From the IMG/VR virus record IMGVR_UViG_2778261545_000002: a DNA stretch of 35,041 bases, one strand, 5' to 3'. The DNA is from a virus (Duplodnaviria > Heunggongvirae > Uroviricota > Caudoviricetes). Position 1 is the first letter of the stretch. Each line of letters opens with the position of its first letter. Below, piece by piece: positions 1,447 through 34,566 of this stretch. The translations under genes were made by a program, and so were the position numbers. Under the pieces are notes generated by a model, which was not told the origin of the DNA, did no database searches, and saw only the letters and a program-made list of their open reading frames with translations.

Positions 1447-1533
1447 GCTGAAAAACATAACCCATAAAATGCTAGCTGTACCAGGAACCACCTCCTTAGC
1501 CTGTGTAATCTCCCTTACACGGGCTTATTTTTT
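1447..1533 (+). ncRNA. cyaR: CyaR (RyeE) Hfq-dependent small RNA
   Basis: Sequence GCTGAAAAACATAACCCATAAAATGCTAGCTGTACCAGGAACCACCTCCTTAGCCTGTGTAATCTCCCTTACACGGGCTTATTTTTT matches CyaR as I recall it; ends in a stem-loop plus T6 intrinsic terminator. Confidence 0.85.
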
Positions 1534-1534
1534 A
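1507..1534. repeat. attL core: 28-bp direct repeat AATCTCCCTTACACGGGCTTATTTTTTA (P2-type att core, overlapping the cyaR terminator)
   Basis: Exact 28-bp copy recurs at 34539..34566; its reverse complement matches the remembered 27-bp P2 attP core AAAAAATAAGCCCGTGTAAGGGAGATT. Confidence 0.85.
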
Positions 1535-1597
1535 CGCGTAATACAATGAAATAAAAGGATTTATTTCTGGTCACGTCCACACATTGACCACATCGAC

Positions 1598-1622
1598 AAA
1601 AAAGCCCCTCGACTGAGGGGCT
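1598..1622 (-). terminator. Intrinsic terminator downstream of ogr
   Basis: On the minus strand, an 8-bp GC-rich stem (AGCCCCTC / GAGGGGCT, loop 4 nt) is followed by T6 (plus-strand A-run 1598..1603). Confidence 0.6.
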
Positions 1623-1634
1623 TCCTGTTTGTAA

Positions 1635-1853
1635 TTACATCCACATAATTTGCTGCCCTGACGGCAACGGGTGCGGCCTTACGGCGTGGACTTCTCCCGG
1701 CTTCACGATGTATCGCTGTACCGACTCATAAGTGATGAACGTGGCGCTGCAATTCACGTTCTGGCACTGGTGATAACGCTCTTTTGTCGTGTCAGTGATA
1801 TAGCGACTTGTACGCGCATGTGCGGCATGCTGGCATAAAGGACAATGAAACAT
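1635..1853 (-). CDS. ogr: Ogr late-gene transcription activator, C4 zinc finger (72 aa)
   Basis: MFHCPLCQHAAHARTSRYITDTTKERYHQCQNVNCSATFITYESVQRYIVKPGEVHAVRPHPLPSGQQIMWM matches P2 Ogr; the track ORF (to 1916) has a 21-aa N-terminal extension that I trimmed to the internal Met. Confidence 0.85.
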   Translation of the reverse strand: MFHCPLCQHAAHARTSRYITDTTKERYHQCQNVNCSATFITYESVQRYIVKPGEVHAVRPHPLPSGQQIMWM

Positions 1854-1934
1854 CGCGAGCACCTCTTCCGGTTTTGTTGATGGTGCCATTTTAGTTAATT
1901 TATCCTTATAAAACAAACAGATAAAATAAAAACA

Positions 1935-3098
1935 TCACTCATCATCTTCTGTTTCGTACTCCACATCAGAAAGCCTGACCTCAAGCTCCAAGGACGTCGT
2001 GAAGCCGCTATTATTCAGAAAATGTGTCACCTTAGTGATTGTCCAGTCCTGCTCGTCTATGACGCGCTTAAAGCCTGACACTTTAACCGGTGTTTCCGTG
2101 TAAATATCAGCACGACCGGTAGCCAGACTGATGGAGAACTCCGCAACGCCCCGTTGCAGCTTATCCCACTTCGCCTGAGCGGCGCGCATGGCCTGCGCTT
2201 TCGTGGCATATACCGTGGTCAGGGCAAAAACGTTGTCAGCCTCACCGGCCATGTATTCACCTTCGCGCGCTTCCGGTACTTTTGGCGCTTTCTTCTGCGT
2301 GACCGGTTTCGCTTTCGGGTGCTCCAGTGCGCGCAGGTGTTTTTCTTTCTTTTTGCGTTTCAGTTTTACCTTCTGCTTTTGCGGCTTCGGGTCTTTGGTG
2401 TGTAACCACTTTGCCGTTACGCCGGTGTAAGCTCCACGGTCAGCAATCGCAAAATGATGACGGTCGCCGTCGCTGCGGGTGATGGTAATCTGCGGGATTT
2501 TTTTACCGCTGGCCGTCACCCCCTGCCCCGCTTTGAGAAACAGCAGTTTTCCCATTTTTACCGACACCTCACCGCCGTTGCGTTCTGCAAGACGGGTCAG
2601 AAATTTCGCATCAGACTCCTGCGACTGGTCGATGTGCGGGATTTTAATTCCGGCCAGTGACGGAGCGACACTGGCTTCCAGCCTGTTACGGGAGGCTATC
2701 GCCTCAACAATCGCACCGAGCGTGGTGTCATGCCATGAGCCTTCCCGGCGGGAATTGAGCGTCCCGCGAAAATCTGCACTCCGGGCGCGGATGGTGACCA
2801 CATCCGGTGCGCCCCGGTGTTCAACCTCATCAACGGTAAATTTCCCTTTGCATACCAGGGCAAAACCTTTCCAGCCGATATACACCGTCAGGACAGCGCC
2901 ACGAACCGGCAGCCCGACCTGCCCGTCGGCATCGTTCAGTTCAATATCAAGCTGGTCAGCCTCAAAGCCCCGGTTATCCGTCAGGGTCATGCTCATCAGA
3001 CGGTCGCTGATATTGCCGGTAATATCCCTGCTGTCGAGCATCAGCATGTAATCCGGCGTCAGCGTACTGCCTGCATCAAATGTCAGCGCATCCAGCAT
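1935..3098 (-). CDS. D: Tail protein D (387 aa)
   Basis: Length identical to P2 gpD (387 aa); position between ogr and U; stop/start overlap with U. Confidence 0.85.
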   Translation of the reverse strand: MLDALTFDAGSTLTPDYMLMLDSRDITGNISDRLMSMTLTDNRGFEADQLDIELNDADGQVGLPVRGAVLTVYIGWKGFALVCKGKFTVDEVEHRGAPDVVTIRARSADFRGTLNSRREGSWHDTTLGAIVEAIASRNRLEASVAPSLAGIKIPHIDQSQESDAKFLTRLAERNGGEVSVKMGKLLFLKAGQGVTASGKKIPQITITRSDGDRHHFAIADRGAYTGVTAKWLHTKDPKPQKQKVKLKRKKKEKHLRALEHPKAKPVTQKKAPKVPEAREGEYMAGEADNVFALTTVYATKAQAMRAAQAKWDKLQRGVAEFSISLATGRADIYTETPVKVSGFKRVIDEQDWTITKVTHFLNNSGFTTSLELEVRLSDVEYETEDDE

Positions 3099-3577
3099 TA
3101 TTCCGCCCCCGTCATCCCCGTGAATCTGGTCGCCAGACTGCCAGCCTTACCGATGAGCGACTCCGCCTGTTTACCGATATCGCCATAAAGCGCGGCCAGT
3201 GATTCATCAACGCGGGTGAGTGACAGCGTAAAATCAATTTTCCGGGGTGTGCCGTCTGCAAAGAAAATACTCCCTGTTTCACTCACCCTGCTGATGACAT
3301 ACATGCCGTAAATCATGCCTGTGCCATCCAGCAACGGCCACGCCCGGCCTTCCTCTGCCATCAGCCTGAGCGTGGTCATCGTCAGCTTTCCGCCGGTCAG
3401 TTCAGGATAAAGCACACCGGCAAGCGTGATGTTTTCCTCACCCACACCGAGAAACTGGTAGGCATCCCGTTTACCGATACGGGAATTTGACGGCCAGCGA
3501 TAATCTGATTCACGCTGCATGGTCTGGTGTGGCAGCGTCTGGCGCATAAAAACAAACATACCTAACGCGAGCATCAT
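3098..3577 (-). CDS. U: Tail protein U (159 aa)
   Basis: Length equals P2 gpU; synteny between T and D. Confidence 0.85.
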   Translation of the reverse strand: MMLALGMFVFMRQTLPHQTMQRESDYRWPSNSRIGKRDAYQFLGVGEENITLAGVLYPELTGGKLTMTTLRLMAEEGRAWPLLDGTGMIYGMYVISRVSETGSIFFADGTPRKIDFTLSLTRVDESLAALYGDIGKQAESLIGKAGSLATRFTGMTGAE

Positions 3578-3591
3578 TTTTCGTCACCTCC

Positions 3592-6039
3592 TTAACCGTC
3601 ATGCATCATGCTGGCACGGGCGCGCGCACGTTTATCCCGCTCGTATTTTTCGAGCGCATCCTGTAACTGGCGGTCAAGCTGTGTCTCCGGCGCAGTACCG
3701 CCCGTCAGGCTGATGTGATATTCGTTTTTACTCTGGTCCACATAAGAGCGGCCAGCCGGTGCCGTGACCGGCTGATAAGCCTGATAGCCTGCATAAGAGC
3801 TGGTCGCCGGAATATAACCACCGGTGCCATACGTGGCGGCATTAGTCCTTGCGGCGGTCTGGTCAAGTGTGTCTGACTCTTTGTTGATAACACCGAGTTT
3901 TTCCAGTACCCAGTCAATACCACTGCGCAGTTTGTTGAACGCATTAAGCGGCAGCATCAACGCGTCAGCCAGTGCCTGCCCGAACATGACGCCCGTGTCA
4001 CGGCAACGGTTCAGGGTGTCCTGTGTGGCTTTAACCGGGGCAATCAGGTTTTTAAACCACTGCCACGCGGCCTGTAACTTTTCTCCCAGCCAGTCAAACA
4101 CCGGCTTAAGTGGCGTGAACAGTTCCCCCACCGGCGCAAATGCCGCTTTCAGCCCTTCCACCACACCGCCAAAGAATGCGCTGACAGGCTCCCAGTATTT
4201 ACGGATAAGCAACGCCCCGGCGACAATGGCGGCCACCACAGCCACAACCGGCCAGCTAATCGCCCCGATGGCCGTCATAACGGCACTGCCAACCGTCGTG
4301 AAGATTGCCCCCATTGCGCCTGCTGCCGCGATGATGGCATTGATGCCGGTGATAACCGGCCAGGCTACAAGGCCAATGGCACCGATGATGCCAGTAAGCG
4401 CCAGCGCGCCACCGGCAATGATGCCGATGGTTGACGCCAGTGATTTGTTTTTCTGGATCCAGCCGTCGAGTTTTAACACATACTTTGTGGCTGTCTGCGT
4501 GAGCTTACGCAGCGCGCCTTCCTGCTGGTCAAACAGGTCAGTCCCCACCGCCTCATAAGCGGACTGAAACTCCTTAAAGTCACCGCCGAGGTTATCCTGC
4601 ATGATTTTAACCAGCTCTTCCGTTTTACCGTCCGAGGCTTTCAGCGTGGCGGTCAGCTTATCCAGTTTTCCGCTTGCTGCCGCTGCCAGTAAAACGTTCG
4701 CTGATTTCAGGGCTTCCTCACCAAAAATGGTTTTAAGGTATTCCCCCTTCTGAGACGTTCCCAGCTTGTGTTTATCAAAGCTGGCCTGAATCTCTTTCAG
4801 AATGGTGAATAACGGACGCATATTTCCCTTTTTGTCCGAGGTTTTCACGCCAAGCTCTTTGAGTGCATCCCATGCTTTTCCAGTCGGTGCCTGTAATCGG
4901 GTGACAACGGCACTGCTACCCGTCCCCGCCATTGACCCCCTGATGTTATTGTCATGCAGCACACCTGTCATGGCTGCTGCCTGCTCAAGACTTACACCTG
5001 CCGTCCTCGCAACCGGCCCGAGGTAAGTCAGTGCATCACTGAGTCCCTGAAAATCAGCCGCCGACTTATTCATCGTTGCCGACAACACGTCGCCCACATG
5101 GCTGACATCATCATTTGACAGTTGAAAGGATGCCTTAGTCCCCAGCAACAGTTGCGCGTTTTCTTCCATCGACCGCTGATTCGCCAGTGCCATATTCAGC
5201 GTGACCGGCGTTGCCGCCTGAATAGCCGCAGCATCTCCACCCGCTTTCGCAATGATAATCTGTGCACCGGCTGCATCATCTGCCGAGGCTGCGGTATTGT
5301 CGCCGAGCTGGCGCGCCTGCTTGCGGAGTGCGGTCATTTCGGCGGAGTCTTTTGCCACACCGAGCACAGCCTGTAATTCTGAGTTTTTCTGCGCAAACTC
5401 ATAACCGGGCATCAGCAGCTTAACTCCGGCCATCGTTCCCGCAGCTGCAATCCCCACACCGGCAGCGCCCACTGAGGCCATATTTCCGGCCAGTTCCTTT
5501 CCTGCCTGATAACGCTGTTTGACTGCGTTAAGTTTTACCTGTTGTGCACTGACACGCGCCAGCGCGTCACGCTGACGGTTAAGCTGTGCGGTGGTTTCAC
5601 TGATACGGTTTTTCAGTCCCTGCTCATCATGTGCAAGATTGCGGGTATTAATTCCCACAACGGCCAGTTCCCGCTGCTGGCGTTTAACAGAATCCGTCAG
5701 GCGGTTATATTTCGCCTGTAAGTCCTCCGCCGCACGCTTTGCGGATTCCAGCACTTTCGCCTGAGCACGGGTCGGACGTTCGGTGTTTTTAAACTGTGTG
5801 GCAAGGGCTTCGGCTTCCTGCCGAGCCTTTTCAAGTGCATGACCAGTCACGGCGAGCTGTGCACTGGTCTTGCGAAATCCCTCAATACGGGATGCCTGAC
5901 CGTTCAGCTCGCGCAGTGATTTTTGTGTTTCCCGGATATCCCCCGACAGCGATTTGCTCGCTGTGCGGATGGATTTAAACGGGCGGGATGCCTGGTCAAC
6001 AGCCCTGAGCAATACCTGTAATTTTACATTGTTACTCAT
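3592..6039 (-). CDS. T: Tail tape measure protein T (815 aa)
   Basis: 815 aa as in P2 gpT; Ala/Gly-rich hydrophobic central segment typical of tape measure proteins; synteny. Confidence 0.88.
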   Translation of the reverse strand: MSNNVKLQVLLRAVDQASRPFKSIRTASKSLSGDIRETQKSLRELNGQASRIEGFRKTSAQLAVTGHALEKARQEAEALATQFKNTERPTRAQAKVLESAKRAAEDLQAKYNRLTDSVKRQQRELAVVGINTRNLAHDEQGLKNRISETTAQLNRQRDALARVSAQQVKLNAVKQRYQAGKELAGNMASVGAAGVGIAAAGTMAGVKLLMPGYEFAQKNSELQAVLGVAKDSAEMTALRKQARQLGDNTAASADDAAGAQIIIAKAGGDAAAIQAATPVTLNMALANQRSMEENAQLLLGTKASFQLSNDDVSHVGDVLSATMNKSAADFQGLSDALTYLGPVARTAGVSLEQAAAMTGVLHDNNIRGSMAGTGSSAVVTRLQAPTGKAWDALKELGVKTSDKKGNMRPLFTILKEIQASFDKHKLGTSQKGEYLKTIFGEEALKSANVLLAAAASGKLDKLTATLKASDGKTEELVKIMQDNLGGDFKEFQSAYEAVGTDLFDQQEGALRKLTQTATKYVLKLDGWIQKNKSLASTIGIIAGGALALTGIIGAIGLVAWPVITGINAIIAAAGAMGAIFTTVGSAVMTAIGAISWPVVAVVAAIVAGALLIRKYWEPVSAFFGGVVEGLKAAFAPVGELFTPLKPVFDWLGEKLQAAWQWFKNLIAPVKATQDTLNRCRDTGVMFGQALADALMLPLNAFNKLRSGIDWVLEKLGVINKESDTLDQTAARTNAATYGTGGYIPATSSYAGYQAYQPVTAPAGRSYVDQSKNEYHISLTGGTAPETQLDRQLQDALEKYERDKRARARASMMHDG

Positions 6040-6459
6040 TCGTGTTTCCGCTTCGCCGGAGCGCCTTTTCGCGCCATGTGATGAGTTCGGTCAGGCTCAT
6101 GGGATACAGTTCTGATGGCGGCCAGTGAAATATCACTGCCACATCCGCCATCAGGTCATCGACCGAGAGATTTTTCGGAAACGTCACTGCACCGAGTTCG
6201 GCGACAAAAAACCGACCACCTTACCGGCCAGCGCCACAAGGTCAGGCAGTTCCAGCGCGGCGACCTCCTGTTCGGTCAGCATCGGTGCCGTCATGCGCGG
6301 CAGCACTTTAATCAGTGCATCGACTTCGGAGTTCGCGACCGCAGCCAGACTGACACCGCGCAGCGTCCCGGCATTGGGTTTCATCAGCGTGACCTGTTCG
6401 ATAACCTGCTCACCACGCTTGACCGGATTGTCCAGGGTAATCACATTTTCTTTGTTCAT
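6032..6459 (-). CDS. E: Tail assembly chaperone E (6184..6459, 91 aa) and E+E' fusion made by programmed -1 frameshift at TTTTTTG (plus coords 6205..6211), extending to a stop at 6032..6034
   Basis: E ends ...GKVVGFLSPNSVQ*. The minus-strand heptamer T-TTT-TTG sits in E; the -1 frame continues ...FFVAELGAVTFPKNLSVDDLMADVAVIFHWPPSELYPMSLTELITWREKALRRSGNTNE*, and its stop overlaps the T start (ATGAGTAA), as in P2. Confidence 0.8.
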
Positions 6460-6515
6460 GGTTTTCTCACTTCTGAATCAGGGTTAACCGGTCAGCCAGG
6501 CTGACCGGATGAAAA

Positions 6516-7034
6516 TCACAGGCCGATATTTCGGCGGTGTTGCTCCAGCCGGTCGACGCCGTTCACCTTCTCAATCATGTTGATGGTGTCGATTTCGACC
6601 AGCTCCTTACCGTCCATCGTCAGCCGGAAATAGGTGCAGACCACGGAGATTTTCGACTCGGTGTCTTCTCCCTGTTTACCCTCGCCGGTGTCGATTTCTT
6701 TCTGACGTCCACGCATGACCACTTCGACGGCCACCGTTTCGCCGGTATCGTCGCGCTGGTAAGAGCCTGCAAAACGAATCGGCACGGCATCCACACCGGT
6801 TGCGGCGTAAAGCTCCCAGATAACCGAATCCGGGAAGCCCCCGAGCGACCACTCCATTGACAGCGCATCGTCATCAAGGCCGAGGTCTACCGGTGCGCTG
6901 CCGTTCATCCCCGCACCGCGATAGTTTTCGAGCTTACGGGTCAGTTTTGGCAGCGTGACGGACTTTGCAACGCCCTGATAGCTGTAGCCGTTCAGAAAGA
7001 CGTTCATTAACTTGAGTTTGCGCGGCATTGCCAT
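6516..7034 (-). CDS. FII: Tail tube protein FII (172 aa)
   Basis: Length and position match P2 gpFII. Confidence 0.85.
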   Translation of the reverse strand: MAMPRKLKLMNVFLNGYSYQGVAKSVTLPKLTRKLENYRGAGMNGSAPVDLGLDDDALSMEWSLGGFPDSVIWELYAATGVDAVPIRFAGSYQRDDTGETVAVEVVMRGRQKEIDTGEGKQGEDTESKISVVCTYFRLTMDGKELVEIDTINMIEKVNGVDRLEQHRRNIGL

Positions 7035-7046
7035 CGGTCAGTCTCC

Positions 7047-8237
7047 TTAATTGCTGTTAACCGAAGTGACCAGATTTGCCAGGTATTTATCGGTGATACG
7101 CTGGCGCAGGGTCAGGTTTTCGAGAGGAGGCACCGGGGTATAGTCGTAGTCGATATACAGTTTTCCGGCCTTGAGGGTTTCCGCATCGTTGGATTCTTCG
7201 CTGAACCAGCAGGTCGCATCCACGATATAGCCGTTTGTTTTCAGCTCACGGAATTTGGCATTGATGCCGTCAACGATGTCGCGAATCAGCGTTGCGGTGA
7301 TGGGCTTGTCCACCGCCCACATGTGCGCCTCAGCCATCGTATCGGCCAGCACCTGCGCGGTGCGGGTGTAGTTTTCAAAGAGGAAAAGCGGGTCATCAGA
7401 GCAGGTACGGTTACCCCAGAATCGGAAACCGTCACGGCGAATCAGCGTAGTGACGCCTGACTCGTTAAGCAGGTCAGCATCGGTGCCGGACTCCTGCAAA
7501 TCCCAGAATACAGATGCGCTGATGCCGGTAACACCGTTCACCCCGACATTGGACAGCGTTTTATGCCAGCCCTGCTCCTGGTCGATTCTGGCACGCAGAC
7601 CCAGCGCACGGGCGGTGGCATACGCGGTGGCGGTGGTGCTGGTGACCGTATCCCATGCGAGGAAATCCGGCCAGATGACCATCAGCTCACGCTGGCTGAA
7701 ATTCTGGCGGTAGGCTTTCACCTCGGAAATGGTCTTACAGCCCCATGCGCTGATATACCCGAAAGCGCGCAGCTTCTGACAGACTGATGCCAGTGCAACA
7801 GCCACCTCTTTGGTGTCCAGTCCCGGCACACCGAGAATACGCGGTTTAACACCGGTTACCGACTCCGCCGCCAGCAGGGCTTTCAGTCCGGTGTACTGAC
7901 CGTTTTCGTCGGTGGTGCCGATGATATTGGATACGGTCTGCGCGAGTTTCGTTTCCTCGTCGTCGCCGGTGCCGTCTTCCACACGCACAACAACGGTGAC
8001 CGGTTTTGACTGGTCAGCGATGGCCTGCAACGATGCCGCCAGCGTGCCTTTTTTACCAGCCTTTGCAATTGCACTCTGCACATTGGTAATCAGCACAGGT
8101 TTATTGAGGGGGAAGGTTTCCGCATCCGCATCGCTGGCCGTGCAGACCAAGCCGACAATGGCAGTGGATACGGTGGAAATGACGCGGGTGCCGTCGTTAA
8201 TCTCCAGCACCTGCACGCCGTGATGATAGTCACTCAT
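7047..8237 (-). CDS. FI: Contractile tail sheath protein FI (396 aa)
   Basis: Length and position match P2 gpFI; begins MSDYHHGVQVLEINDGTRVI... Confidence 0.88.
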   Translation of the reverse strand: MSDYHHGVQVLEINDGTRVISTVSTAIVGLVCTASDADAETFPLNKPVLITNVQSAIAKAGKKGTLAASLQAIADQSKPVTVVVRVEDGTGDDEETKLAQTVSNIIGTTDENGQYTGLKALLAAESVTGVKPRILGVPGLDTKEVAVALASVCQKLRAFGYISAWGCKTISEVKAYRQNFSQRELMVIWPDFLAWDTVTSTTATAYATARALGLRARIDQEQGWHKTLSNVGVNGVTGISASVFWDLQESGTDADLLNESGVTTLIRRDGFRFWGNRTCSDDPLFLFENYTRTAQVLADTMAEAHMWAVDKPITATLIRDIVDGINAKFRELKTNGYIVDATCWFSEESNDAETLKAGKLYIDYDYTPVPPLENLTLRQRITDKYLANLVTSVNSN

Positions 8238-8424
8238 CCGTTTAACTCCGTGGTTAATGGGTGCAACTATTTTCTGTTGGGCAGTGCATGAGACGCTATT
8301 TGACCTGGCTGGTCAGTGGATGAAACAACAGACAAAGAAAAAGCGGGTAATCCGCCTGCCTGTCATGATTTGCACTCACTCATTTTCCAACTGACAATTT
8401 ACATAGCCCAAACGCTATCAAATC

Positions 8425-8454
8425 TGACAGTCTGCTTTGAGCGAGGAGCAGACT
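8425..8454. repeat. Hairpin-forming element, left copy (8-bp stem AGTCTGCT/AGCAGACT, 10-nt loop), at the left GC-to-AT boundary of the cargo island
   Basis: Inverted repeat read directly; 23 of 30 positions identical to the copy at 10529..10558, with a compensatory stem change. Confidence 0.6.
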
Positions 8455-8623
8455 TAACCTTTTAGAGTGTAATTTTCCAAGAAATATAGCATTATCAAAT
8501 TAGCAAAAGGCATTAGATGATTTTATATTCATTTCATTAGCCGCAAGTTAGGTATGGACCGATGAGAGATGATTACAGAAATCAGTCGGATCATTTTACA
8601 GTACTTTATGAGTGTGGATTGCT

Positions 8624-27285: not shown

Positions 27286-27468
27286 TTTAATCTGATACGA
27301 TTACAGCGCAGTACTAAACCAATAGTGATAGGCTGTGCTGTTCCCAAAGATGGTGATCTCAAAATCAGAATGTGTTATAAATTAGCCAATCAAAAAACCT
27401 AAGCACACAAACAAATCAATCATTACGATTTACAATGATGAAAATATTATGATACAAAAGGAGTTGAT

Positions 27469-28230
27469 ATGAATAACATGGAGATTTTGAAAGCCGTAAA
27501 AGCTGGAATGAAAAAGTCAGCCAAAGCTACTTATTTAATGGATTTCAGTTCCGGTGGAAAAATAAACACTGAATATGTAGCTACCGTATCTATAGGTCAA
27601 TCCTTGATTAAAATAACATCTTTTCATCATGGTGATTACAAGATCATATTTGAATACCATACAAATAAATTCATTAATGCAACAGTCCCTTTATCGAAAC
27701 GGCATGACCCCAACAATATATTCTCAAGACACATTATCAGAAAAAATGCAAACACAAAAAGACCAGGCAGAATCGATATTGCCATATTGGACAGTAGATC
27801 ATTTTTCGAGACTCCTATATGTGCAATAGAAGTTAAAGGAAACAACCCTAGTAAAAAACTTTTATTTTCTGACATAAGAAGAAATCTTGAATACTTTAAA
27901 CACACAGGTCCTACGGGGAGTTCAAGCCTTGAACTAGCATTAAACTGTTTATTCCATTCATACAATGATTCAACTAAAAAAAATTACTGCACTACAATCC
28001 ACCATAAGGAAGACATGATAAGGAAATTAAAAAACAAATATAAAAAATACATATCTGAATTAAATAAAGAAATTCCAGATGATATATCTGTTACAATTGA
28101 TGTTTTTACAGCAGCAGAGCATTTACTATCTCCTGATGCTGACCAATATGAATACGAATCACATATAGATGACTTACATTTGACGCTTGGCGTTATGGTT
28201 ATATTCGAACGAAAATCGATACTCAATTGA
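27469..28230 (+). CDS. tin: Tin-like protein (253 aa), assigned by position; possible PD-(D/E)xK-like motif
   Basis: AT-rich ORF directly after old, where P2 carries tin; RBS AAAGGAG; GRIDIAILD...ICAIEVK resembles a D...E-x-K nuclease core, but this is a weak motif-level call. Confidence 0.5.
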   Translation: MNNMEILKAVKAGMKKSAKATYLMDFSSGGKINTEYVATVSIGQSLIKITSFHHGDYKIIFEYHTNKFINATVPLSKRHDPNNIFSRHIIRKNANTKRPGRIDIAILDSRSFFETPICAIEVKGNNPSKKLLFSDIRRNLEYFKHTGPTGSSSLELALNCLFHSYNDSTKKNYCTTIHHKEDMIRKLKNKYKKYISELNKEIPDDISVTIDVFTAAEHLLSPDADQYEYESHIDDLHLTLGVMVIFERKSILN

Positions 28231-28268
28231 TATTATTTGTGGCTTAGAATAATTTGCTTATTTACAAT

Positions 28269-28598
28269 TTAAAGCAAATATATTGCCACCGTTCTTCGCC
28301 TTAGATTTATAAAAAATGTGGAGGATACTGCCAGCTTGACAGTCAGCGGCAGTATCTCACCTAGTATTCTGTGCAGCAAGACATAATCTTCCAGCCAGTC
28401 TGACAGGTCAGTAACATCTGTTATCTGGGCTTCAACCTTTCGCCCCGTAAACACACCCTGCACCCATTCATGCAAAATCAACGTGTCCCCGCGCTCATAA
28501 TTACGGTCATTTTTCCGAAACTCTGCGCGTTTCTTTCCTTCCAGCACAAGGTCAAAATATTTTGCGTGCAGCTTTACCTCGTGAATTTTTGCCATCAT
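28269..28598 (-). CDS. Small protein downstream of A (P2 orf91 position), ASCH/PUA-like
   Basis: Start ATG overlaps the A stop (ATGA); HEVKLHAKYFDLVLEGKKRAEFRKNDRNYERGDTLIL resembles ASCH-type domains. Track ORF trimmed to the internal Met. Confidence 0.5.
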   Translation of the reverse strand: MMAKIHEVKLHAKYFDLVLEGKKRAEFRKNDRNYERGDTLILHEWVQGVFTGRKVEAQITDVTDLSDWLEDYVLLHRILGEILPLTVKLAVSSTFFINLRRRTVAIYLL

Positions 28599-30880
28599 TT
28601 CCACTCCATTACTGTTGAGAATCCCGGCCACTCATCAGCGACCGGATACGTGAATTTTTTCCCGTCATAATTTACGGTCGCGCCACGCGCCAGCGCCTCA
28701 AGCTCCCATCGCTGCGGCCTGATACCGTTCTGAGCAAGGTCAACGCGGATACGGGTAATTTGCATTCTTTCCGACCGGGTCAGTCTGGCCGATGGTGCAA
28801 TTTCATGTGGTTTTAACGGGCTTCCGTTTCTTTGCTGACGGTTTGGCGTTCTCAGGTCGTGTTTTAATGCACCCCTGAGCGCCCTCACGACCTCCGGGTC
28901 ATTCCATTCGATAACACCATCATCAACCAGATTAAGCACTGCTGCGGCGTGTTCAGAAGGCGTGGGAGCCGGTGACGAAGTATCACCACTGGTGAGCTTT
29001 CCACAGTTATTGACAGGACTCCGAGGCGCGGCGATGCCGCTTTTTAAAGTCAAAGGCTCAACGACCGGCACTTTCGGAACAATGCGCCAGTTCGTCGTTC
29101 TGGTGATATGAATATGACGCGCGCCGAGATGCGGCGCGTAAATGCCGACCACTCTCTCGACTTCTTCCTCGTACTCGTTAACTTCATCCGACGGACTACG
29201 GGCGACCCTGACAGTCTGACAATCGCGCGGGACATTTGCCCCACCCTGCGCGCTGATATACAGCGCAAAATCGCCACTGTCTGCGGCAGCGCGTGCAGCC
29301 TCGACGCGTTCGTCAAACTCATCAGCAATGCTGACGCCGCGAGGTAATTTGCGTAGTTCACGGTAAGCCCCCATTGTCGGCAGGCCAACCGTTTTAAATT
29401 GCGGAATGCGCCACGTTGACGCCCATGCGGTAACAGCCGCGGCAGTGTCTTTCAGCGGCCTGCCGGTATCGTTATCGAGCTGACCATCCAGTGCATAGCC
29501 GTCGATGTTTTTTGAAATGTATTTCGCGATATACCCCGCAGCACCGCCCCGGTTAAGGTGTTTTGCCTGAAAACGGTTTCGCGCGGCTCCTCTTTCGTCG
29601 CCATCCTCTTTGAGCGCATAGCGACGCATGATTTCGATAATCTGGTTACGCTGGCGCGGATTACAAAAAAGCATCATATGCCAGTGCGGCGTTCCGTCGT
29701 GGTGTGGCTCGACGACACGCAAACCGTAGACCTGTAAATCATTATCCTTGAATGCCGTGCGCATCAGGCTCCAGATACGGCAGAGATAACGCTGCGCATC
29801 CTTTGGATTAAATGCCTCATCGTTCCAGCCGTGATTTAGCTGGACGGTTTTACTTTCGCCTTTTCTGACCTGACGTGTCGGGTGATACTTTGACGGCGCG
29901 GTCAGCGTGATAAACATCCCCACATCACCCTCTGCTGCGGCGTAACGCTCAATACCGGCAATGGTGTTCATCAGCTCCATCCGGCGAATTTCAGGATTAG
30001 AAATACTGCCCATCACCTTACTGATAAGGTCGATGCGCTCGCCGGTTTCCCTGTTTTCAAGGTCACACGCTTTAAGAAATTCCAGATTTGCCTGGCGGCG
30101 CGCACGCACATCACGAATGGCATGTTTACTGGCATAAGGAGAACGGTCTTTATTGACCTCCCCGACAGCTATCAGTAACGCCTCATGCCAGCGCATACGC
30201 TGGCCTTTAAGCTGATGAGTCCACCACTCATCGTTAAACAGGCGGGCAATGGCAGAATATGCCTGCCTCGTGGTCATCTGTCCTTTACGGTATTTTTTCC
30301 AGTAGAGCGGGGAAATATTGAAAGCACGTGCAGCGCCAGCAACATGACCATAGAGGTGAGCCTGCGCCTCATCCGTAAACAGCGATTCTTTTTCGCCATG
30401 TGCATCAACCCAGGCATCGCAGAGTTCCTCATACATCATGAAAAGCTGCGATGAGATACGGGCAGCAAACTTTTTCAGCTCCTTGTCATTCATTCCCGGC
30501 AGGCGCGCATAGTGGTCACGCTCTGCCAGAAACAGCAACGACGCGTCGGTGTTCATTTCATGGCGCTGATTCACACGCTCAATGCGCGGCCATAAACGAC
30601 GCTGAAAAGTGGATGTGAGGAAATAAAACCCGTGCACCGGGCTTTTATTGCGCCGGATGTAGTCATAACGTGAAGTAAACAGCGAGCGCAAAAAGTAAGG
30701 CAGGCGGTTAATCGTGGATAAAACACCTTGCACCTGACGCATCTCGTCACGTGTAAGGGGTCTTTCGCGCCCGACAGCCTCGCGTGGCGCGTTCCATGCA
30801 TAAGCACCGGTAAACGTCTTACCGGTGCCTGCGGCAAATGCTGACGGAGGGACAAAACGCCCGGAGGCTTTAACGGCCAT
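28595..30880 (-). CDS. A: Replication initiation protein A, rolling-circle nickase (761 aa)
   Basis: From the internal Met MAVKASGRFVPPSAFAAGTG... the length is 761 aa, as P2 gpA; sequence matches my recollection of P2 A over its length. Confidence 0.88.
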   Translation of the reverse strand: MAVKASGRFVPPSAFAAGTGKTFTGAYAWNAPREAVGRERPLTRDEMRQVQGVLSTINRLPYFLRSLFTSRYDYIRRNKSPVHGFYFLTSTFQRRLWPRIERVNQRHEMNTDASLLFLAERDHYARLPGMNDKELKKFAARISSQLFMMYEELCDAWVDAHGEKESLFTDEAQAHLYGHVAGAARAFNISPLYWKKYRKGQMTTRQAYSAIARLFNDEWWTHQLKGQRMRWHEALLIAVGEVNKDRSPYASKHAIRDVRARRQANLEFLKACDLENRETGERIDLISKVMGSISNPEIRRMELMNTIAGIERYAAAEGDVGMFITLTAPSKYHPTRQVRKGESKTVQLNHGWNDEAFNPKDAQRYLCRIWSLMRTAFKDNDLQVYGLRVVEPHHDGTPHWHMMLFCNPRQRNQIIEIMRRYALKEDGDERGAARNRFQAKHLNRGGAAGYIAKYISKNIDGYALDGQLDNDTGRPLKDTAAAVTAWASTWRIPQFKTVGLPTMGAYRELRKLPRGVSIADEFDERVEAARAAADSGDFALYISAQGGANVPRDCQTVRVARSPSDEVNEYEEEVERVVGIYAPHLGARHIHITRTTNWRIVPKVPVVEPLTLKSGIAAPRSPVNNCGKLTSGDTSSPAPTPSEHAAAVLNLVDDGVIEWNDPEVVRALRGALKHDLRTPNRQQRNGSPLKPHEIAPSARLTRSERMQITRIRVDLAQNGIRPQRWELEALARGATVNYDGKKFTYPVADEWPGFSTVMEWK

Positions 30881-31145
30881 ATGAGCCAAAAGCCTCTGAA
30901 CAACGCCTGCTGAGTTGCTCAACCTGCGCGTTTAAATCAGCAAAAGACTTTGCGCTTCCGGTCAGAATATCGTGATGCATCAGGCCGGAAACGAGCTGGC
31001 TTAATTTCGGGTAATAACCAACCACCGCCAGCCATTCCTGACCGGCGTTTTTACCGCTTTCCGCTCTCTTTTTCTCGTGGAGAATAAACTGAAAGCTGTC
31101 ACTGGTAACGACATAACGTTCGCCAATTTCAATACGAATACTCAT
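30870..31145 (-). CDS. Small hypothetical protein (P2 orf83 position)
   Basis: ORF in the B-to-A small-gene cluster; no recognisable motif. Confidence 0.5.
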   Translation of the reverse strand: MSIRIEIGERYVVTSDSFQFILHEKKRAESGKNAGQEWLAVVGYYPKLSQLVSGLMHHDILTGSAKSFADLNAQVEQLSRRCSEAFGSYGR

Positions 31146-31366
31146 GCCGTTCTCCGGTAATGTTTGTTTTTTGCTTCAAAGACTGACTGACAGGAAACAC
31201 AACGCGTGGCTGACGGATAAGCCGCACGACGGGCAGCAGGTATTGGCGCGTCACACTCTTCGCAAACCAGCGCAGAAGCACCGCAATGTTTTACCCTTGC
31301 CGCGTTAATCTGGCGCTCCAGTAATTCAGCCTGTTGTTCCTGAATAAAATCTACGTTGTCCGGCAT
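31142..31366 (-). CDS. TraR/DksA-type C4 zinc-finger protein (P2 orf82 position, 74 aa)
   Basis: C-x2-C...C-x2-C in CEECDAPIPAARRAAYPSATRCVSCQ. Confidence 0.65.
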   Translation of the reverse strand: MPDNVDFIQEQQAELLERQINAARVKHCGASALVCEECDAPIPAARRAAYPSATRCVSCQSVFEAKNKHYRRTA

Positions 31367-31368
31367 TA

Positions 31369-31671
31369 TCAGATCCTTTTATCGTTAAGTTTCCTGGATA
31401 CATCAGCGCAATAACTGGCAAGTTCTGTCGTTAATTTTGTCAGTTCATCCACTGAGGAAATTTGCTTGTGGAATACAGCGCGTTTAACAAGTAAATTGAC
31501 CACATCAGACAGGAGGTTTAATTCATTCTGATAAATCGCGATAACAGATTCAGTTATGTCGCGTTTTTCTTTATCAAGACAAAGTTGAATAAGAGACAAA
31601 TCACCATTTTCCATAACGGCGATTTTTAAGGCGTTATTCAGTAATACAACTGAATGAGAACAGGACATCAA
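31369..31671 (-). CDS. Small hypothetical protein (P2 orf81 position)
   Basis: ORF with stop/start overlaps to both neighbours; synteny only. Confidence 0.5.
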
Positions 31672-31925
31672 AGTACCTCCCCGCGAGACAATCCGATATT
31701 GTGAAATTTTTCCGACTCCTGACTGAGCAGCTCGACTATCTCCACGCGGGATAACTCCGCCTTTGTGATGTGGCGAATCATGGCATCAAGATGAGAAGAA
31801 AAACGCGTCGCAGCGTCGGCCTGTGCTTCGGTTCTGGCCTGTTGCAGCAGTAATGCGTATTTACCGCACTGATTTTCAGAAACTGTATGCATGACTTTCT
31901 CCAGGCAAAAAGAAGCCCCGCACAA
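31668..31925 (-). CDS. Small hypothetical protein (P2 orf80 position)
   Basis: Synteny only. Confidence 0.5.
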
Positions 31926-31955
31926 TTAAGTGCGTTAAAAACTCTGGTTAATTAC

Positions 31956-32456
31956 TTAATGCAGATATTGCTCTGGTTTTACCGACGTCAGAATTGTCGG
32001 TGCATACTCAAACAGGCTGAATAATTCACGTAATGCACGGAATAAAGCATCACGCCAGTAACATGACTCTTCATTAATTCGCCAGTATGGCTGGTTAAAT
32101 TCTTTTTCTGTCAGTCGTGCGTGCATAAATAAAGTACGGCGCTGACTGACTGTTAAAAAACTAATATATGCATACTCACTTGCACCGACCTGACGACGTT
32201 TTGAGAATGCCCCACGCAATTCATCAATTGCACAAACCAGCCGTTCACGTTCGACGTCGTTCATTTCTTCAAAACGCATCGTTGCGTGACGCTGTTTTAA
32301 CTGCGCATGGAAGCAAACCGTTAGCCGTTCGCGTTCCATCATCTGATTATAATAATCGCATGTCTCCTGCCAGCGAGGGACGGCAAGATGCTTACCAATT
32401 ATCCGGCGCATAGCTGCTGGCTGTTTTTCGACGAGATTGAGCGTCATCACTGTCAT
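31956..32456 (-). CDS. B: Replication protein B, helicase-loader-like (166 aa)
   Basis: Length and synteny with P2 gpB. Confidence 0.8.
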   Translation of the reverse strand: MTVMTLNLVEKQPAAMRRIIGKHLAVPRWQETCDYYNQMMERERLTVCFHAQLKQRHATMRFEEMNDVERERLVCAIDELRGAFSKRRQVGASEYAYISFLTVSQRRTLFMHARLTEKEFNQPYWRINEESCYWRDALFRALRELFSLFEYAPTILTSVKPEQYLH

Positions 32457-32647
32457 TTCCAGACCCTCCGGCTTTTCAGAAAGGTCAGAGCCTTTTTTAA
32501 CGGACTCTGTTTTTTGGTGCGGATAATGATTCCCTTGCGACCCTTCCCGTGGGTGATGGTGAAGTCAATCGCCCTGGGGCTTTCGTTACGCAGTAACTGA
32601 GCAATACAACGAGGCTCATTCATACGGTTCTCCTTAACGTGGTTCAC
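32453..32647 (-). CDS. Small basic protein (P2 orf78 position)
   Basis: Synteny between cox and B; true start uncertain. Confidence 0.45.
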   Translation of the reverse strand: MNHVKENRMNEPRCIAQLLRNESPRAIDFTITHGKGRKGIIIRTKKQSPLKKALTFLKSRRVWK

Positions 32648-32909
32648 CGAGACCTAACCACATCAACCAGCCGTCACGAATCTCTTTAGGACGGCTTTCA
32701 TAAGCCAGTTTTAGTCCGTTATTCCATGCCGGAAGGTATACCCAATATTCACCAGCACGCCCCGATACTGACTGAGGGTCAGTAATCTCAATAACTGGTA
32801 ATTTCCCTTTCTCAATCATGCCCCTTACAGCTCTTGGAGTTTTACCAATGAGTTTTGCAAACTCCTGATAAGGCACGGCATCAGTCACGCTTACAAGCTG
32901 TCTATTCAT
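32634..32909 (-). CDS. cox: Cox: excisionase and repressor of the lysogenic promoter (91 aa)
   Basis: 91 aa as P2 Cox; transcribed divergently from C across a short switch region. Confidence 0.78.
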   Translation of the reverse strand: MNRQLVSVTDAVPYQEFAKLIGKTPRAVRGMIEKGKLPVIEITDPQSVSGRAGEYWVYLPAWNNGLKLAYESRPKEIRDGWLMWLGLGEPR

Positions 32910-32933
32910 CTGCTACGATTCTCCCTTAGTGCT

Positions 32934-32953
32934 TCTAATGGCTCCTAATGGCT
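32934..32953. promoter_or_regulatory. Tandem 10-bp direct repeat (TCTAATGGCT / CCTAATGGCT) in the cox-C switch region: candidate operator
   Basis: Two helical-turn-spaced repeats between the divergent cox and C starts; P2-family C repressors bind direct repeats in this region. Confidence 0.4.
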
Positions 32954-33030
32954 AATTATTGCCTAAAAGGATAACTCCAGAAGCACAACATTTCACACCA
33001 TCAGCAAGAAATTACGCAATCGGAGTAATT

Positions 33031-33330
33031 ATGTCAATAGACGTTTCGGAGAAGTTGAAGCTAATCCGTGAATCTGAAAGGTTAAACCGTAAAGAATTCA
33101 GTGAATTAACTGGTGTAGCCTACAGCTCACTTTCGAGCTATGAGAGCCGGTCAAAAAACGCTGGAGTTGAAGCCATAATGAAGGTCTTACAACATCCTAG
33201 ATTTACTAAATATACTTTGTGGTTCATGACTGATCAGGTAGCTCCAGAAGCCGGGCAAATTGCGCCCGCTCTCGCACACTTTGGGCAAAACGAAACAACG
33301 TCGCCCCACTCCGGTCAAAAGACTGGTTAA
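33031..33330 (+). CDS. C: Immunity repressor C (99 aa)
   Basis: C-terminal ...FTKYTLWFMTDQVAPEAGQIAPALAHFGQNETTSPHSGQKTG matches P2 C as I recall it; the N-terminal half appears divergent. Track ORF trimmed to the internal Met. Confidence 0.78.
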   Translation: MSIDVSEKLKLIRESERLNRKEFSELTGVAYSSLSSYESRSKNAGVEAIMKVLQHPRFTKYTLWFMTDQVAPEAGQIAPALAHFGQNETTSPHSGQKTG

Positions 33331-33445
33331 CAATTTATCGTGAATATATTCATCACAAGTGCCTACTATTGGTGGCTAAATTTCAGCCACCACGAAAAAA
33401 GCGATTAGTAGTAGCAAAAAAAAGTACCACTCGGAGGGTTTTCTG

Positions 33446-34459
33446 ATGGCAATCAAAAAACTCGATGATGGTCGATATGAAGTGGACATCCGCCCTACTG
33501 GACGTAACGGAAAACGCATCCGTAGGAAGTTTGATAAGAAAAGCGAAGCTGTCGCTTTCGAAAAATACACGTTGTACAACCACCACAATAAAGAATGGCT
33601 ATCAAAACCAACAGACAAACGACGTCTGTCGGAACTGACACAGATCTGGTGGGATTTAAAGGGTAAACACGAAGAGCATGGGAAATCTAATCTTGGAAAA
33701 ATTGAAATCTTCACAAAAATAACGAATGACCCATGCGCATTTCAAATCACGAAATCCCTTATCAGCCAGTACTGCGCCACCCGAAGAAGTCAGGGTATTA
33801 AACCTTCGAGTATCAATCGTGATTTAACATGTATTAGCGGCATGTTTACAGCCCTGATTGAAGCGGAGTTATTCTTTGGTGAGCACCCTATCAGAGGGAC
33901 AAAGAGGCTTAAGGAGGAAAAACCAGAAACAGGCTATCTCACACAGGAAGAAATTGCCTTACTGCTTGCAGCACTTGACGGCGACAATAAAAAGATTGCG
34001 ATTCTTTGCCTGAGTACAGGAGCACGTTGGGGAGAAGCAGCTCGTTTGAAAGCAGAAAATATCATCCATAACCGCGTCACGTTTGTTAAAACGAAAACAA
34101 ACAAACCACGCACCGTCCCGATCTCAGAGGCTGTTGCCAAAATGATCGCGGATAACAAACGAGGTTTTTTATTCCCTGATGCTGATTACCCTCGCTTCAG
34201 ACGAACAATGAAAGCAATAAAACCGGATTTGCCAACGGGGCAAGCCACACATGCACTAAGGCACAGCTTTGCCACTCATTTCATGATTAATGGAGGAAGT
34301 ATTATCACGCTACAACGGATACTAGGTCACACGCGGATTGAGCAAACTATGGTTTACGCTCATTTTGCGCCAGAGTACCTTCAGGACGCCATTTCTCTTA
34401 ATCCGCTAAGAGGTGGTACTGAGGCCGAGAGTGTCCACACAGTGTCCACAGTAGAGTAA
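33446..34459 (+). CDS. int: Tyrosine integrase (337 aa)
   Basis: Same length as P2 Int; C-terminal R...HxxR...Y catalytic pattern (ALRHSFATHF...GHTRIEQTMVYAHF); adjacent to attR. Confidence 0.9.
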   Translation: MAIKKLDDGRYEVDIRPTGRNGKRIRRKFDKKSEAVAFEKYTLYNHHNKEWLSKPTDKRRLSELTQIWWDLKGKHEEHGKSNLGKIEIFTKITNDPCAFQITKSLISQYCATRRSQGIKPSSINRDLTCISGMFTALIEAELFFGEHPIRGTKRLKEEKPETGYLTQEEIALLLAALDGDNKKIAILCLSTGARWGEAARLKAENIIHNRVTFVKTKTNKPRTVPISEAVAKMIADNKRGFLFPDADYPRFRRTMKAIKPDLPTGQATHALRHSFATHFMINGGSIITLQRILGHTRIEQTMVYAHFAPEYLQDAISLNPLRGGTEAESVHTVSTVE

Positions 34460-34538
34460 CGTTTAAGGGCTTTCAGTGGTAATTTATGCCGCTCAAACCC
34501 GCATTGTACCGTTGAAAGCCCCTACTGGTGACACCCTA

Positions 34539-34566
34539 AATCTCCCTTACACGGGCTTATTTTTTA
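34539..34566. repeat. attR core: 28-bp direct repeat identical to 1507..1534
   Basis: Exact match AATCTCCCTTACACGGGCTTATTTTTTA; the flanking bases differ. Confidence 0.85.

Follow-up and report, generated by a model that had tools for sequence, protein, structure and literature searches.

A P2-type prophage at the cyaR locus

The window (the whole 35,041-nucleotide stretch that we analysed) carries a 33-kb P2-type prophage between trhP/yegQ–cyaR and yegR (Table 1). We found the 28-bp sequence AATCTCCCTTACACGGGCTTATTTTTTA exactly twice, on the + strand, once at each end of the element, in agreement with the first-pass annotation, which had described exact direct repeats flanking the prophage. 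No such repeat is expected by chance (0 of 100 shuffles, with up to three mismatches tolerated). The repeat matches the P2 attP core at every position, and the sole difference from P2 in the att regions is a variant IHF box, which phage 10W also carries in its joined attP. A vestigial P-arm-like sequence in the right chromosomal flank scored 38 in local alignment, a value that none of 2000 shuffles reached (highest shuffle score, 25); it is also found in unoccupied sites, such as the empty site of strain MARGA_4.

The match of cyaR to Rfam RF00112 covers the whole model and scores 100.7 bits (gathering score 47). The core starts at A1507, so that in the CyaR terminator stem 9 nt of the 5′ strand are chromosomal and only the final 2 nt of that strand lie within the core. 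cyaR is intact in the lysogen because the 28-bp core carries the terminator loop, the 3′ strand and the U-tract. The proposal that integration regenerates the CyaR 3′ stem-loop and terminator from phage DNA therefore holds for these three parts but not for the entire hairpin.

Virtual excision, in which positions 1–1534 were joined to 34567 and the remainder of the window, reproduced the unoccupied trhP–yegR interval of MARGA_4, except for one T and scattered SNPs; the T-run of the core is one T shorter here than in MARGA_4, the one empty site compared. The ryeE/cyaR gene is a documented phage target (PMC3603311), and an ogr–cyaR junction is present in approximately 1167 of 5426 complete E. 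coli genomes (about 21%). The prophage arrangement at cyaR is ordinary and already known, not new. In K-12, as had been noted, the locus holds only a cryptic remnant (ogrK plus the D fragment yegZ). This remnant shares the junction, matches window positions 1300–2147 at 97.8%, includes the IHF-box variant region and has its right end inside the core, but has kept just ogr plus 213 bp of D, whereas the whole phage is present here.

Table 1. Coordinates of features in the window
Feature	Position	Strand	Remarks
trhP/yegQ, left flank	1–1362	+	U32 peptidase-family tRNA hydroxylase; Pfam Peptidase_U32, E 5e-89; also RefSeq, SBF45 and K-12
cyaR (ryeE) sRNA gene	1445–1530	+	Rfam RF00112, full length
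att core copy 1, cyaR/ogr-side junction	1507–1534		Exact 28-bp repeat; P2 attP core
Phage att arm, ogr side	1535–1624	-	Compared with P2
Variant IHF box	1535–1565	-	5/34 mismatches to P2
Int P-arm site	1569–1596	-	0 mismatches to P2
ogr/F-operon terminator	1601–1624	-	1 mismatch to P2
ogr, late-gene activator	1635–1853	-	72/72 aa identical to P2 Ogr
F operon tail genes	1935–8237	-	92–100% aa identity, full length, no gaps
D	1935–3098	-	F operon
U	3098–3577	-	F operon
T	3592–6039	-	F operon; 92% identical to P2
E and E+E′	6032–6459	-	F operon
E/E′ slippery site	6194–6214	-	Identical to P2
FII	6516–7034	-	F operon
FI	7047–8237	-	F operon
P_F late promoter region, then left inverted repeat of Z/fun cassette	8238–8454	-	Near-identical to Wphi P_F region
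Left inverted repeat, Z/fun cassette	8421–8454	-	I1
Promoter-like site of HNH cargo gene	8500–8529		Predicted
HNH cargo gene, Z/fun position	8624–10420	+	598 aa; HTH/winged-helix N-terminal region, VcaM4I-type HNH domain
Right inverted repeat/hairpin ending Z/fun cassette	10525–10566		I1 34 nt, 79%; I3 16-nt arms, 94%
Tail-fibre module G + H	10619–13468	-	Pfam Caudo_TAP, Phage_tail_fib, Phage_fiber_2 x4, Gp34_trimer
G	10619–11146	-	Tail-fibre module
H	11150–13468	-	772 aa; extra fibre repeats; C-terminus unlike P2
I, J, W, V (baseplate, tail completion), S–V spacer, S, R	13479–16873	-	96–100% aa identity, full length
lysC, lysB, lysA, K, Y (lysis); X, L; M, N, O (head)	16836–22161	-	96–100% aa identity, full length
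Ogr activator site, divergent P_O/P_P promoters	22241–22271		31/31 identical to P2
P, large terminase	22335–24107	+	99.5% aa identity
Q, portal	24107–25141	+	99.1% aa identity
cos cohesive-end sequence	25312–25330		19/19 identical to P2
Q–A hotspot cargo, old + tin	25525–28230	+	Known P2 anti-phage genes; GC 31–36%
old	25525–27285	+	PADLOC Old, E 1e-214; 99% identical to P2
tin	27469–28230	+	PADLOC Tin, E 9e-100; 87% identical to P2
Early operon: orf91, A, orf83, orf82, orf81, orf80, B, orf78, cox	28269–32909	-	88–100% aa identity; Cox lower
A	28595–30880	-	Early operon; contains ori nick region
ori nick region	29007–29037	-	Exact match to P2
cox	32634–32909	-	Pfam Phage_Cox; 83.5% identical to P2 Cox
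C–cox switch spacer	32910–33030	+	121 bp; not alignable to P2 spacer
Immunity repressor C	33031–33330	+	99 aa; HTH_3 only; 64.6% identical to P2 C
int, tyrosine integrase	33446–34459	+	99.7% identical to P2 Int over 337 aa
int-side att arm	34425–34566		Component sites (next three rows) match P2 exactly
P′ arm	34425–34451		Identical to P2
Cox boxes	34449–34522		Identical to P2
att core copy 2	34539–34566		Exact repeat; identical to P2
Vestigial P-arm-like sequence, chromosomal flank	34583–34612		Local alignment
yegR, right flank	34724–35041	-	105-aa ORF; annotated yegR at same position in K-12, MARGA_4 and others

Gene complement and integrity

Searching with the 42 annotated P2 proteins (tblastn) recovered 40, aligned end to end and gapless; the two missing, orf30 and fun(Z), are non-essential. 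All essential genes were among those found, at full length, free of gaps and with 92–100% amino acid identity. There was no frameshift, truncation or internal stop across the 40 P2-matching genes, and dN/dS relative to P2 was 0.096 over 25 core genes, again with internal stops absent. A simulated −1 frameshift gave an E+E′ product identical to that of P2 at 142 of 143 positions. H is conserved over its first 251 residues only, and G is 74% identical to its P2 counterpart. The sequences flanking cos differ from P2 at 2–3 of 54–60 positions. The 'full complement' of P2 genes previously ascribed to the element is thus correct for the essential genes, but orf30 and fun(Z) are absent and the C/cox module differs.

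We conclude that the window most likely contains a complete prophage of the P2 type (Peduovirus), about 33.0 kb long, integrated by P2 Int at the 3′ end of cyaR (ryeE), intact by sequence and probably a viable temperate phage; we put the probability of this reading at roughly 0.85. Viability appears most likely because, by sequence, the components for lysogeny, excision, replication, packaging, morphogenesis and lysis are all intact. Integration would have proceeded by P2 Int site-specific recombination within the 28-bp core common to attP and attB, at the classical P2 primary site between trhP/yegQ and yegR. Every sequence test run supported the original call of an intact P2-like prophage at cyaR, including its statement on the K-12 remnant.

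An element that merely looks complete, carrying a subtle missense, promoter or operator lesion and maintained in the host chiefly as a defence island (old, tin and the HNH gene), is an improbable alternative. The host would have grounds to keep such a cryptic prophage for its three defence or candidate-defence cargo genes, the immunity switch is without an experimentally characterised counterpart, and K-12 exemplifies decay at the same site; defective P2 elements with conserved defence genes have also been described (PMC13586616). However, the 40 genes are free of frameshifts, truncations and internal stops, every tested cis site is intact, the dN/dS value is low and the frameshift-dependent E+E′ product has been kept. 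Moreover, an independent genome shares the left 13 kb at 99.96% identity, which indicates that the sequence is recent rather than decaying.

Immunity module and route of release

The complete prophage that we favour is probably heteroimmune to P2, since its C repressor is only about 65% identical to P2 C. The only close match to the spacer between C and cox (operators, Pe and Pc) is in another prophage record, ON470606, to which the C/cox module is 99.8% identical; we infer from the sequence that this region functions as the C–cox switch. The prophage record vB_EcoM-720R8 has a C/cox/int-proximal module with 99.8% identity and occupies the same yegR site, but differs in its split N gene and its cargo.

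P2-type lysogens are classically not SOS-inducible. We detected no S24 peptidase domain in the 99-aa C protein and no Tum-like antirepressor ORF in the window. SOS induction is not expected because C lacks a peptidase (autocleavage) domain and a Tum-like antirepressor gene is absent; only spontaneous or P4-satellite-driven release is likely. To call the element 'potentially inducible', as was done at first, is misleading, the realistic routes being spontaneous release or P4 derepression. In the lysogen, C would repress the early promoter, and old, tin and probably the HNH gene would be expressed as lysogenic-conversion (anti-phage) genes, with release occurring spontaneously or through a satellite and not by SOS induction.

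Relatives and mosaic structure

The prophage is a recombinant mosaic on a P2 backbone. Its other parts are P_V and P_F regions of the Wphi type, lacking orf30, a C/cox immunity module that differs from that of P2, a tail-fibre module resembling those found in P2-like phages propagated on Yersinia pestis, the old–tin defence cassette of P2 itself at the Q–A hotspot and a rare HNH-nuclease cassette at the Z/fun hotspot. P2 (NC_001895), whose preferred site is locI as in E. coli C, has the same gene order and shares the 40 proteins, mostly at 96–100% identity, together with identical cos, ori, attP core, Int arms and Cox boxes and the old–tin cassette; orf30 and fun(Z) are present only in P2, and the H C-terminus, G, C, Cox and the IHF box (5 nt) differ. 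Wphi, a viable phage that is also without orf30, has P_V and P_F regions near-identical to those of the window. The S–V spacer of the window (66 bp), which holds P_V and no orf30, shows two mismatches to Wphi in the aligned region, whereas integrase, att site, immunity module and hotspot cargo all differ from those of Wphi. The tail-fibre module is nearest to those of Yersinia phages P37 and vB_YpM_46.

The prophage of E. coli SBF45 (NZ_CP067232) lies at the same site with the same HNH cargo and has only 5 mismatches to window positions 1–13,000 (99.96% identical). Past 13 kb it is 2–4% divergent, and its Q–A hotspot, about 1 kb long, carries no annotated gene, in contrast to old–tin here. This abrupt shift near position 13,000 could reflect an assembly chimera, in which two different P2-like prophages were collapsed into one contig, and P2-like prophages are multi-copy in some genomes, at up to 4–6 places per genome. 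We consider a chimera very improbable, as both junctions belong to the same chromosomal locus and virtual excision yields a real empty site, the gene order is fully P2-like with essential genes neither duplicated nor missing, and the unit length of about 33.0 kb suits P2 packaging. Recombination breakpoints of this kind are normal in P2-like phages (PMC3448106; PMC13586616).

An HNH cargo gene at the Z/fun hotspot

The HNH cargo is the sole uncommon feature of the prophage. An unrelated 598-aa HNH protein, encoded by a gene of low GC content (about 35–38%), takes the place of fun(Z); RefSeq lists the identical SBF45 gene as an 'HNH endonuclease signature motif containing protein'. The annotation of P2-EC58/EC67 also has a left and a right inverted repeat at the Z/fun locus. 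Homologues of the cargo are very rare and always solitary, and are found in defence islands and integron cassettes. The protein is a candidate single-gene anti-phage nuclease. Compared with VcaM4I/TagI-type modification-dependent (type IV) HNH endonucleases, it is without their EVE/SRA/PUA reader domain, having instead about 470 aa of HTH/winged-helix-like units and a long helical hairpin without a Pfam match. It is also unlike the wH-HNH (224–283 aa) and PUA-wH-HNH (375–496 aa) enzymes described previously (PMC11037411).

A role outside defence, as a selfish homing HNH endonuclease, an orphan type II restriction enzyme or a DNA-binding regulator, is possible but rather unlikely. Phages commonly carry HNH homing endonucleases, weak PADLOC matches to type II restriction enzyme HNH models were obtained (E 2e-7 to 5e-6), and the N-terminal region contains a sigma-70 region 4.2-like HTH (hhalign E 2.9e-4, probability 40%). 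On the other hand, the gene lies in a known P2 moron/defence hotspot flanked by the hotspot inverted repeats, and its homologues occur in defence islands beside a type I R-M system or TerB/BrxC-like/helicase genes, or as single superintegron cassettes, and not within conserved phage genes. A methyltransferase partner is never present, so an orphan type II enzyme would be lethal. The HNH domain shares homology with the one in VcaM4I, a modification-dependent enzyme, and at 598 aa the protein is much larger than typical homing HNH enzymes.

Integration at the cyaR attachment site

The element is bounded by exactly two copies of a 28-bp sequence, AATCTCCCTTACACGGGCTTATTTTTTA, both on the + strand, and no third copy occurs in the window even with three mismatches allowed (chance expectation, none). 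The first-pass annotation had described exact 28-bp repeats at these positions, and both the repeat and its coordinates are correct. The core is identical at the two junctions, equals the core of P2 attP and overlaps the 3′ end of the gene for the CyaR (RyeE) sRNA, which is present at full length on the left (Rfam score of 100.7 bits, gathering score of 47). CyaR is the only Rfam family detected in the window, and searches for tRNA and tmRNA genes gave no hits. On the basis of the Rfam structure line and the sequence, the core starts at A1507; of the terminator stem it contains the final two bases of the 5′ strand and all of the 3′ strand, together with the loop and the U-tract. The claim that integration regenerates the CyaR 3′ stem-loop from phage sequence is thus right in spirit, with the qualification that the core supplies the 3′ half, the remaining nine bases of the 5′ strand being chromosomal. 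cyaR stays intact after integration because these 28 bp are also part of attP, and, since the two core copies are identical, bases of phage and of host origin are indistinguishable. The junction is a clean natural example of an sRNA terminator kept by a matching sequence in attP.

Int is a P2-type tyrosine integrase (99.7% identical to P2 Int), and the arm-type Int sites, IHF site and Cox boxes are placed correctly on the two att arms. The reconstructed attP differs from that of P2 solely in five clustered bases in the core-adjacent IHF box, and this variant is found, identical, in the joined (int–core–ogr) attP of Escherichia phage 10W. Virtual excision, joining window 1–1534 to 34567–end, recreated the empty trhP–yegR interval of the E. 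coli strain MARGA_4, minus one T and with scattered SNPs. The T-run of the core (1525–1534 and 34557–34566) holds six Ts in both copies and seven in the attB of MARGA_4, the one empty site examined, a difference that may stem from variation between strains or from the phage copy having taken the place of the host one.

Coordinates of features in the window
Feature	Coordinates	Strand	Remarks
trhP/yegQ	1-1362		left flank
CyaR/RyeE sRNA	1445-1530	+	full length
28-bp core, left copy	1507-1534	+	
Int P arm	1569-1596		identical to P2
Hairpin repeat, left	8421-8454		inverted relative to 10533-10566
Cargo cassette	8455-10532		
Promoter-like site	8500-8529		before cargo gene
HNH cargo gene	8624-10420	+	598 aa; in place of fun(Z); opposite to tail operons
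Hairpin repeat, right	10533-10566		inverted relative to 8421-8454
H (tail fibre)	11150-13468		772 aa (P2, 669 aa); longer, different C-terminus after residue 251
P_O/P_P activator site	22241-22271		identical to P2
cos (19 nt)	25312-25330		exact P2 match; between Q and Q–A hotspot
old + tin cassette	25525-28230		low GC; known P2 cargo position
tin	27469-28230		
ori nick region in A	29007-29037		identical to P2
C–cox spacer	32910-33030		121 bp
Int P′ arm	34425-34451		identical to P2
Cox-binding region (74 bp)	34449-34522		identical to P2
28-bp core, right copy	34539-34566	+	
yegR	34724-35041	-	right flank

The site corresponds to P2 locI. A 401-bp cyaR–core–ogr probe found matches covering 80% or more of it in 1,167 of 5,426 complete E. 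coli genomes, a count that takes in K-12-type remnants; in the other genomes of the listed spread the match ended at window positions 1533–1541 (the core end) or earlier. What K-12 MG1655 has at this locus is ogrK plus a D fragment of 213 bp, the remnant ending inside the right-hand core, which agrees with the earlier statement that K-12 retains only a cryptic remnant there. This K-12 remnant at locI was reportedly described by Barreiro and Haggard-Ljungquist in 1992. ryeE is called 'previously known to be targeted by phages' in E. coli by Bobay, Rocha and Touchon, citing Wassarman 2001 (PMC3603311). The arrangement of a prophage at cyaR is already textbook.

The chromosomal flank to the right of the core, at 34583–34612 (CTGGTCACCGTCTTCCATTGACCACATCGA), is similar to the Int P-arm region of the phage (1567–1596), with a local alignment score of 38 that was reached by none of 2,000 shuffles (maximum of 25). 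The same P-arm-like flank is present in the prophage-free site of MARGA_4, and the 'empty' attB seems to carry the scar of an older P2-type integration, judging from this similarity. A vestige of a P2-type arm beside the core even in 'empty' sites is of small side interest. Outside the window, a ParD/ParE toxin–antitoxin pair lies between yegP and yegQ in MARGA_4 and in E. coli SBF45 (NZ_CP067232), and K-12 is without it.

A complete set of essential P2 genes

The 42 annotated proteins of P2 (NC_001895) were compared with the window by tblastn. Forty of them are present from first to last residue without gaps, with H matching over its first 251 residues only. Identity to P2 is mostly 96–100%, with lower values for T (92%), Orf81 (89%), Tin (87%), Cox (83.5%), G (74%) and C (64.6%). 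The window lacks Orf30 and Fun(Z), both of them non-essential according to the P2 annotation. The essential set is complete and in P2 order (Q, P, O, N, M, L, X, Y, K, R, S, V, W, J, I, H, G, FI, FII, E, E′, T, U, D, ogr, int, C, cox, B and A), and from ogr to int the gene order is exactly that of the P2 prophage. The 'full complement' of P2 genes proposed at first reading therefore stands for the essential genes, with Orf30 and Fun(Z) as the exceptions. A −1 frameshift simulated at the conserved TTTTTTG gave an E+E′ product identical to that of P2 at 142 of 143 positions.

Regulatory and cis-acting sequences are preserved as well. Ogr is 100% identical to the P2 protein. The P_V and P_F promoter regions differ from those of P2 but are nearly identical to their counterparts in Wphi, a viable phage that shares with the element both the absence of orf30 and a 66-bp S–V spacer. 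We considered whether the 10, 10 and 5 differences from P2 in P_V, P_F and the IHF box, respectively, represent damage, and rejected this reading because the promoters match those of Wphi and the IHF box matches the 10W attP. Across 25 core genes compared with P2, dS was 0.11 and dN was 0.0105 (dN/dS of 0.096), and none of these genes contains an internal stop, a combination characteristic of a lineage that evolves as a functioning phage. By sequence we found no lesion, in agreement with the first-pass annotation of an apparently intact P2-like prophage. By sequence, the element has all that P2 needs for Int/IHF integration, Cox-directed excision, rolling-circle replication from the nick site in A, cos packaging, Ogr-activated late transcription and lysis.

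Immunity and release

We next considered how the prophage would be maintained and released. The repressor C has 99 residues and contains an HTH_3 domain only, with no S24 autocleavage domain; both C and Cox (Pfam Phage_Cox, E = 2e-42) are intact. The spacer between C and cox cannot be aligned to the 114 bp of P2 and contains no P2 O1/O2 operator sequence. PMC3448106 gives at least ten immunity classes among P2-like coliphages, with at least 95% identity within a class. Given this rule, the 64.6% identity of C and the unalignable spacer, the element is almost certainly heteroimmune to P2. Near the cox end of the spacer, a 9-bp direct repeat (AGCCATTAG) occurs twice, 10 bp apart, and may be a binding site for Cox or C.

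The immunity module is 99.8% identical to that of vB_EcoM-720R8 (ON470606), which is itself the record of a prophage region, located at the same yegR site, and the only match to the operator spacer. We rejected this record as proof that the module works in a free phage, because it covers a stretch of prophage with yegR, yegS and gatR in it and has a split N gene.

P2-type lysogens are classically not SOS-inducible. SOS-inducible prophages of the lambda or 186 type have either a repressor with an S24/LexA-like autocleavage domain or a LexA-controlled Tum antirepressor, and the element has neither: C lacks the S24 domain, and no Tum-like open reading frame was found, every reading frame in the window being covered by P2 homologues plus the cargo gene. 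For these reasons the initial description of the prophage as 'potentially inducible' is not upheld and should read 'potentially excisable and viable', with release potentially occurring spontaneously or through derepression by a P4 satellite. In the lysogen, C would repress Pe, and old, tin and the HNH gene would be expressed as conversion genes.

Mosaic structure and tail fibre

The element departs from P2 in three regions: the immunity region, the tail fibre, and two low-GC islands at both known P2 cargo positions. As a P2-like temperate phage (Peduovirus) in the usual site of its kind, it is an unremarkable new mosaic within a very well-studied family, and the prophage itself offers little new biology. 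A relative at the same cyaR site in SBF45 matches the left junction and the HNH cargo at 100%. This prophage differs from the window by 5 mismatches over the initial 13 kb, from the flank through H (99.96%), and has 96–98% identity thereafter, with the break at window position ~13,000 (the I/H boundary). At the Q–A hotspot (25,140–28,600), the window has old–tin, whereas SBF45 has ~1 kb without an annotated gene. The contrast points clearly to a recombination breakpoint together with a hotspot cassette swap, and swaps of this kind are described for P2 hotspots in PMC9122126 and PMC13586616. We rejected the SBF45 prophage as the same element on the grounds of its different Q–A hotspot and the 2–4% divergence beyond 13 kb; it is a relative. 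The pair is a clean natural example of near-identical P2 prophages whose main difference lies in exchanged hotspot cassettes. The exact mosaic of the window occurs in none of the complete E. coli genomes and phage records searched.

H, the tail-fibre gene, exceeds its P2 counterpart by 103 codons and contains several copies of a ~132-bp unit, especially at 12450–12950. The protein has four Phage_fiber_2 stretches, and P2 13252–13459 matches at four offsets; a T4 gp34-like trimerisation domain is also present. The nearest relatives of the H C-terminus and of G are those of P37 (90.8% identity over 90% of the query) and vB_YpM_46 (97% over 63%), P2-like phages propagated on Yersinia pestis EV76. 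These matches suggest a functional tail-fibre module whose receptor specificity differs from that of P2.

Cargo at the two P2 hotspots

Both P2 hotspots are loaded at once, with three defence or candidate-defence genes between them. At the Q–A hotspot, old is 99% identical to the P2 gene (PADLOC Old, E = 1e-214; Pfam AAA_15 and OLD-like_TOPRIM domains) and tin is 87% identical (PADLOC Tin, E = 9e-100). The activity of P2 old–tin is confirmed in PMC9122126. The pN/pS of tin relative to P2 is 0.46 (against 0.10 across the 25 core genes and 0.03 in old next to it), which is consistent with diversifying or relaxed selection on an exclusion gene.

The uncommon part of the element is the HNH cargo gene at the Z/fun hotspot, a compact and easily cloned candidate for a single-protein anti-phage nuclease. 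Equivalents of the inverted hairpin repeats that flank its cassette are annotated at the Z/fun locus in the records of P2-EC58 and P2-EC67. Of 5,426 complete E. coli genomes only 1 has the cargo DNA, and 50,697 phage records contain no copy of it. In a set of 5.8 billion proteins clustered at 90%, the protein has only 24 relatives; all are ~600 residues long, their hosts are E. coli, Pantoea, Pseudomonas and Vibrio, and none bears a name more specific than 'HNH endonuclease'. An exhaustive profile search of 1.84 billion representatives gave 20 matches at E ≤ 1e-30, about 8 of which are full-length clusters (50% identity), and the C-terminal ~150 residues proved common to more than 1,500 shorter proteins.

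We put at roughly even odds (about 0.5) the reading that the cargo is a new family of single-gene anti-phage nucleases, in which an array of HTH and winged-helix units steers a VcaM4I-type HNH domain in a type IV-like or trigger-activated manner by way of a new reader. Pfam found only a borderline HNH_2 match (residues 483–536), and neither PADLOC nor Pfam assigned a named defence system, giving only weak matches to HNH or type II restriction endonuclease models. The family profile aligned with residues 202–308 of VcaM4I (E = 1.6e-11), including the terminal Y-x-x-Y-H-R-x-N motif. The domain is a ββα-Me nuclease domain of the VcaM4I type. The protein shares this HNH domain and its solitary occurrence, without a cognate methyltransferase, with the type IV modification-dependent restriction endonucleases of the VcaM4I/TagI class, but no modified-base reader of the PUA superfamily (EVE or SRA) was found in it; we therefore propose that it would operate in the manner of those enzymes and do not count it as one of that class.

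Residues 1–470 have no Pfam match and comprise a helix–turn–helix, about four helix–helix–strand–strand units and a long helical hairpin. The helix–turn–helix shows a weakly supported resemblance to sigma-70 region 4.2 (hhalign E = 2.9e-4, probability 40%, 29 columns, in comparison with RpoD). Because the same N-terminal module is joined in one relative, P0117, to another HNH domain, a canonical one (PF01844), the module appears portable and the nucleases exchangeable, which suggests that the N-terminal region serves in sensing or targeting. Its HTH and winged-helix units would sense or target invading DNA and direct the HNH nuclease.

Genomic neighbourhoods were compared across homologues. 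The gene is always solitary, and no cognate methyltransferase occurs in the window, in SBF45 or in the integron cassettes of V. cholerae. At one homologue locus, in a CP4-like island, a separate type I restriction–modification system lies ~3 kb away across other genes. The homologue in a Pantoea island sits beside genes for TerB, a BrxC-like ATPase and a helicase, with no adjacent methyltransferase. In V. cholerae superintegrons, homologues are single cassettes at varying positions, once beside a SIR2 protein. The family would travel as a lone cassette among P2 hotspots, defence islands and Vibrio superintegrons.
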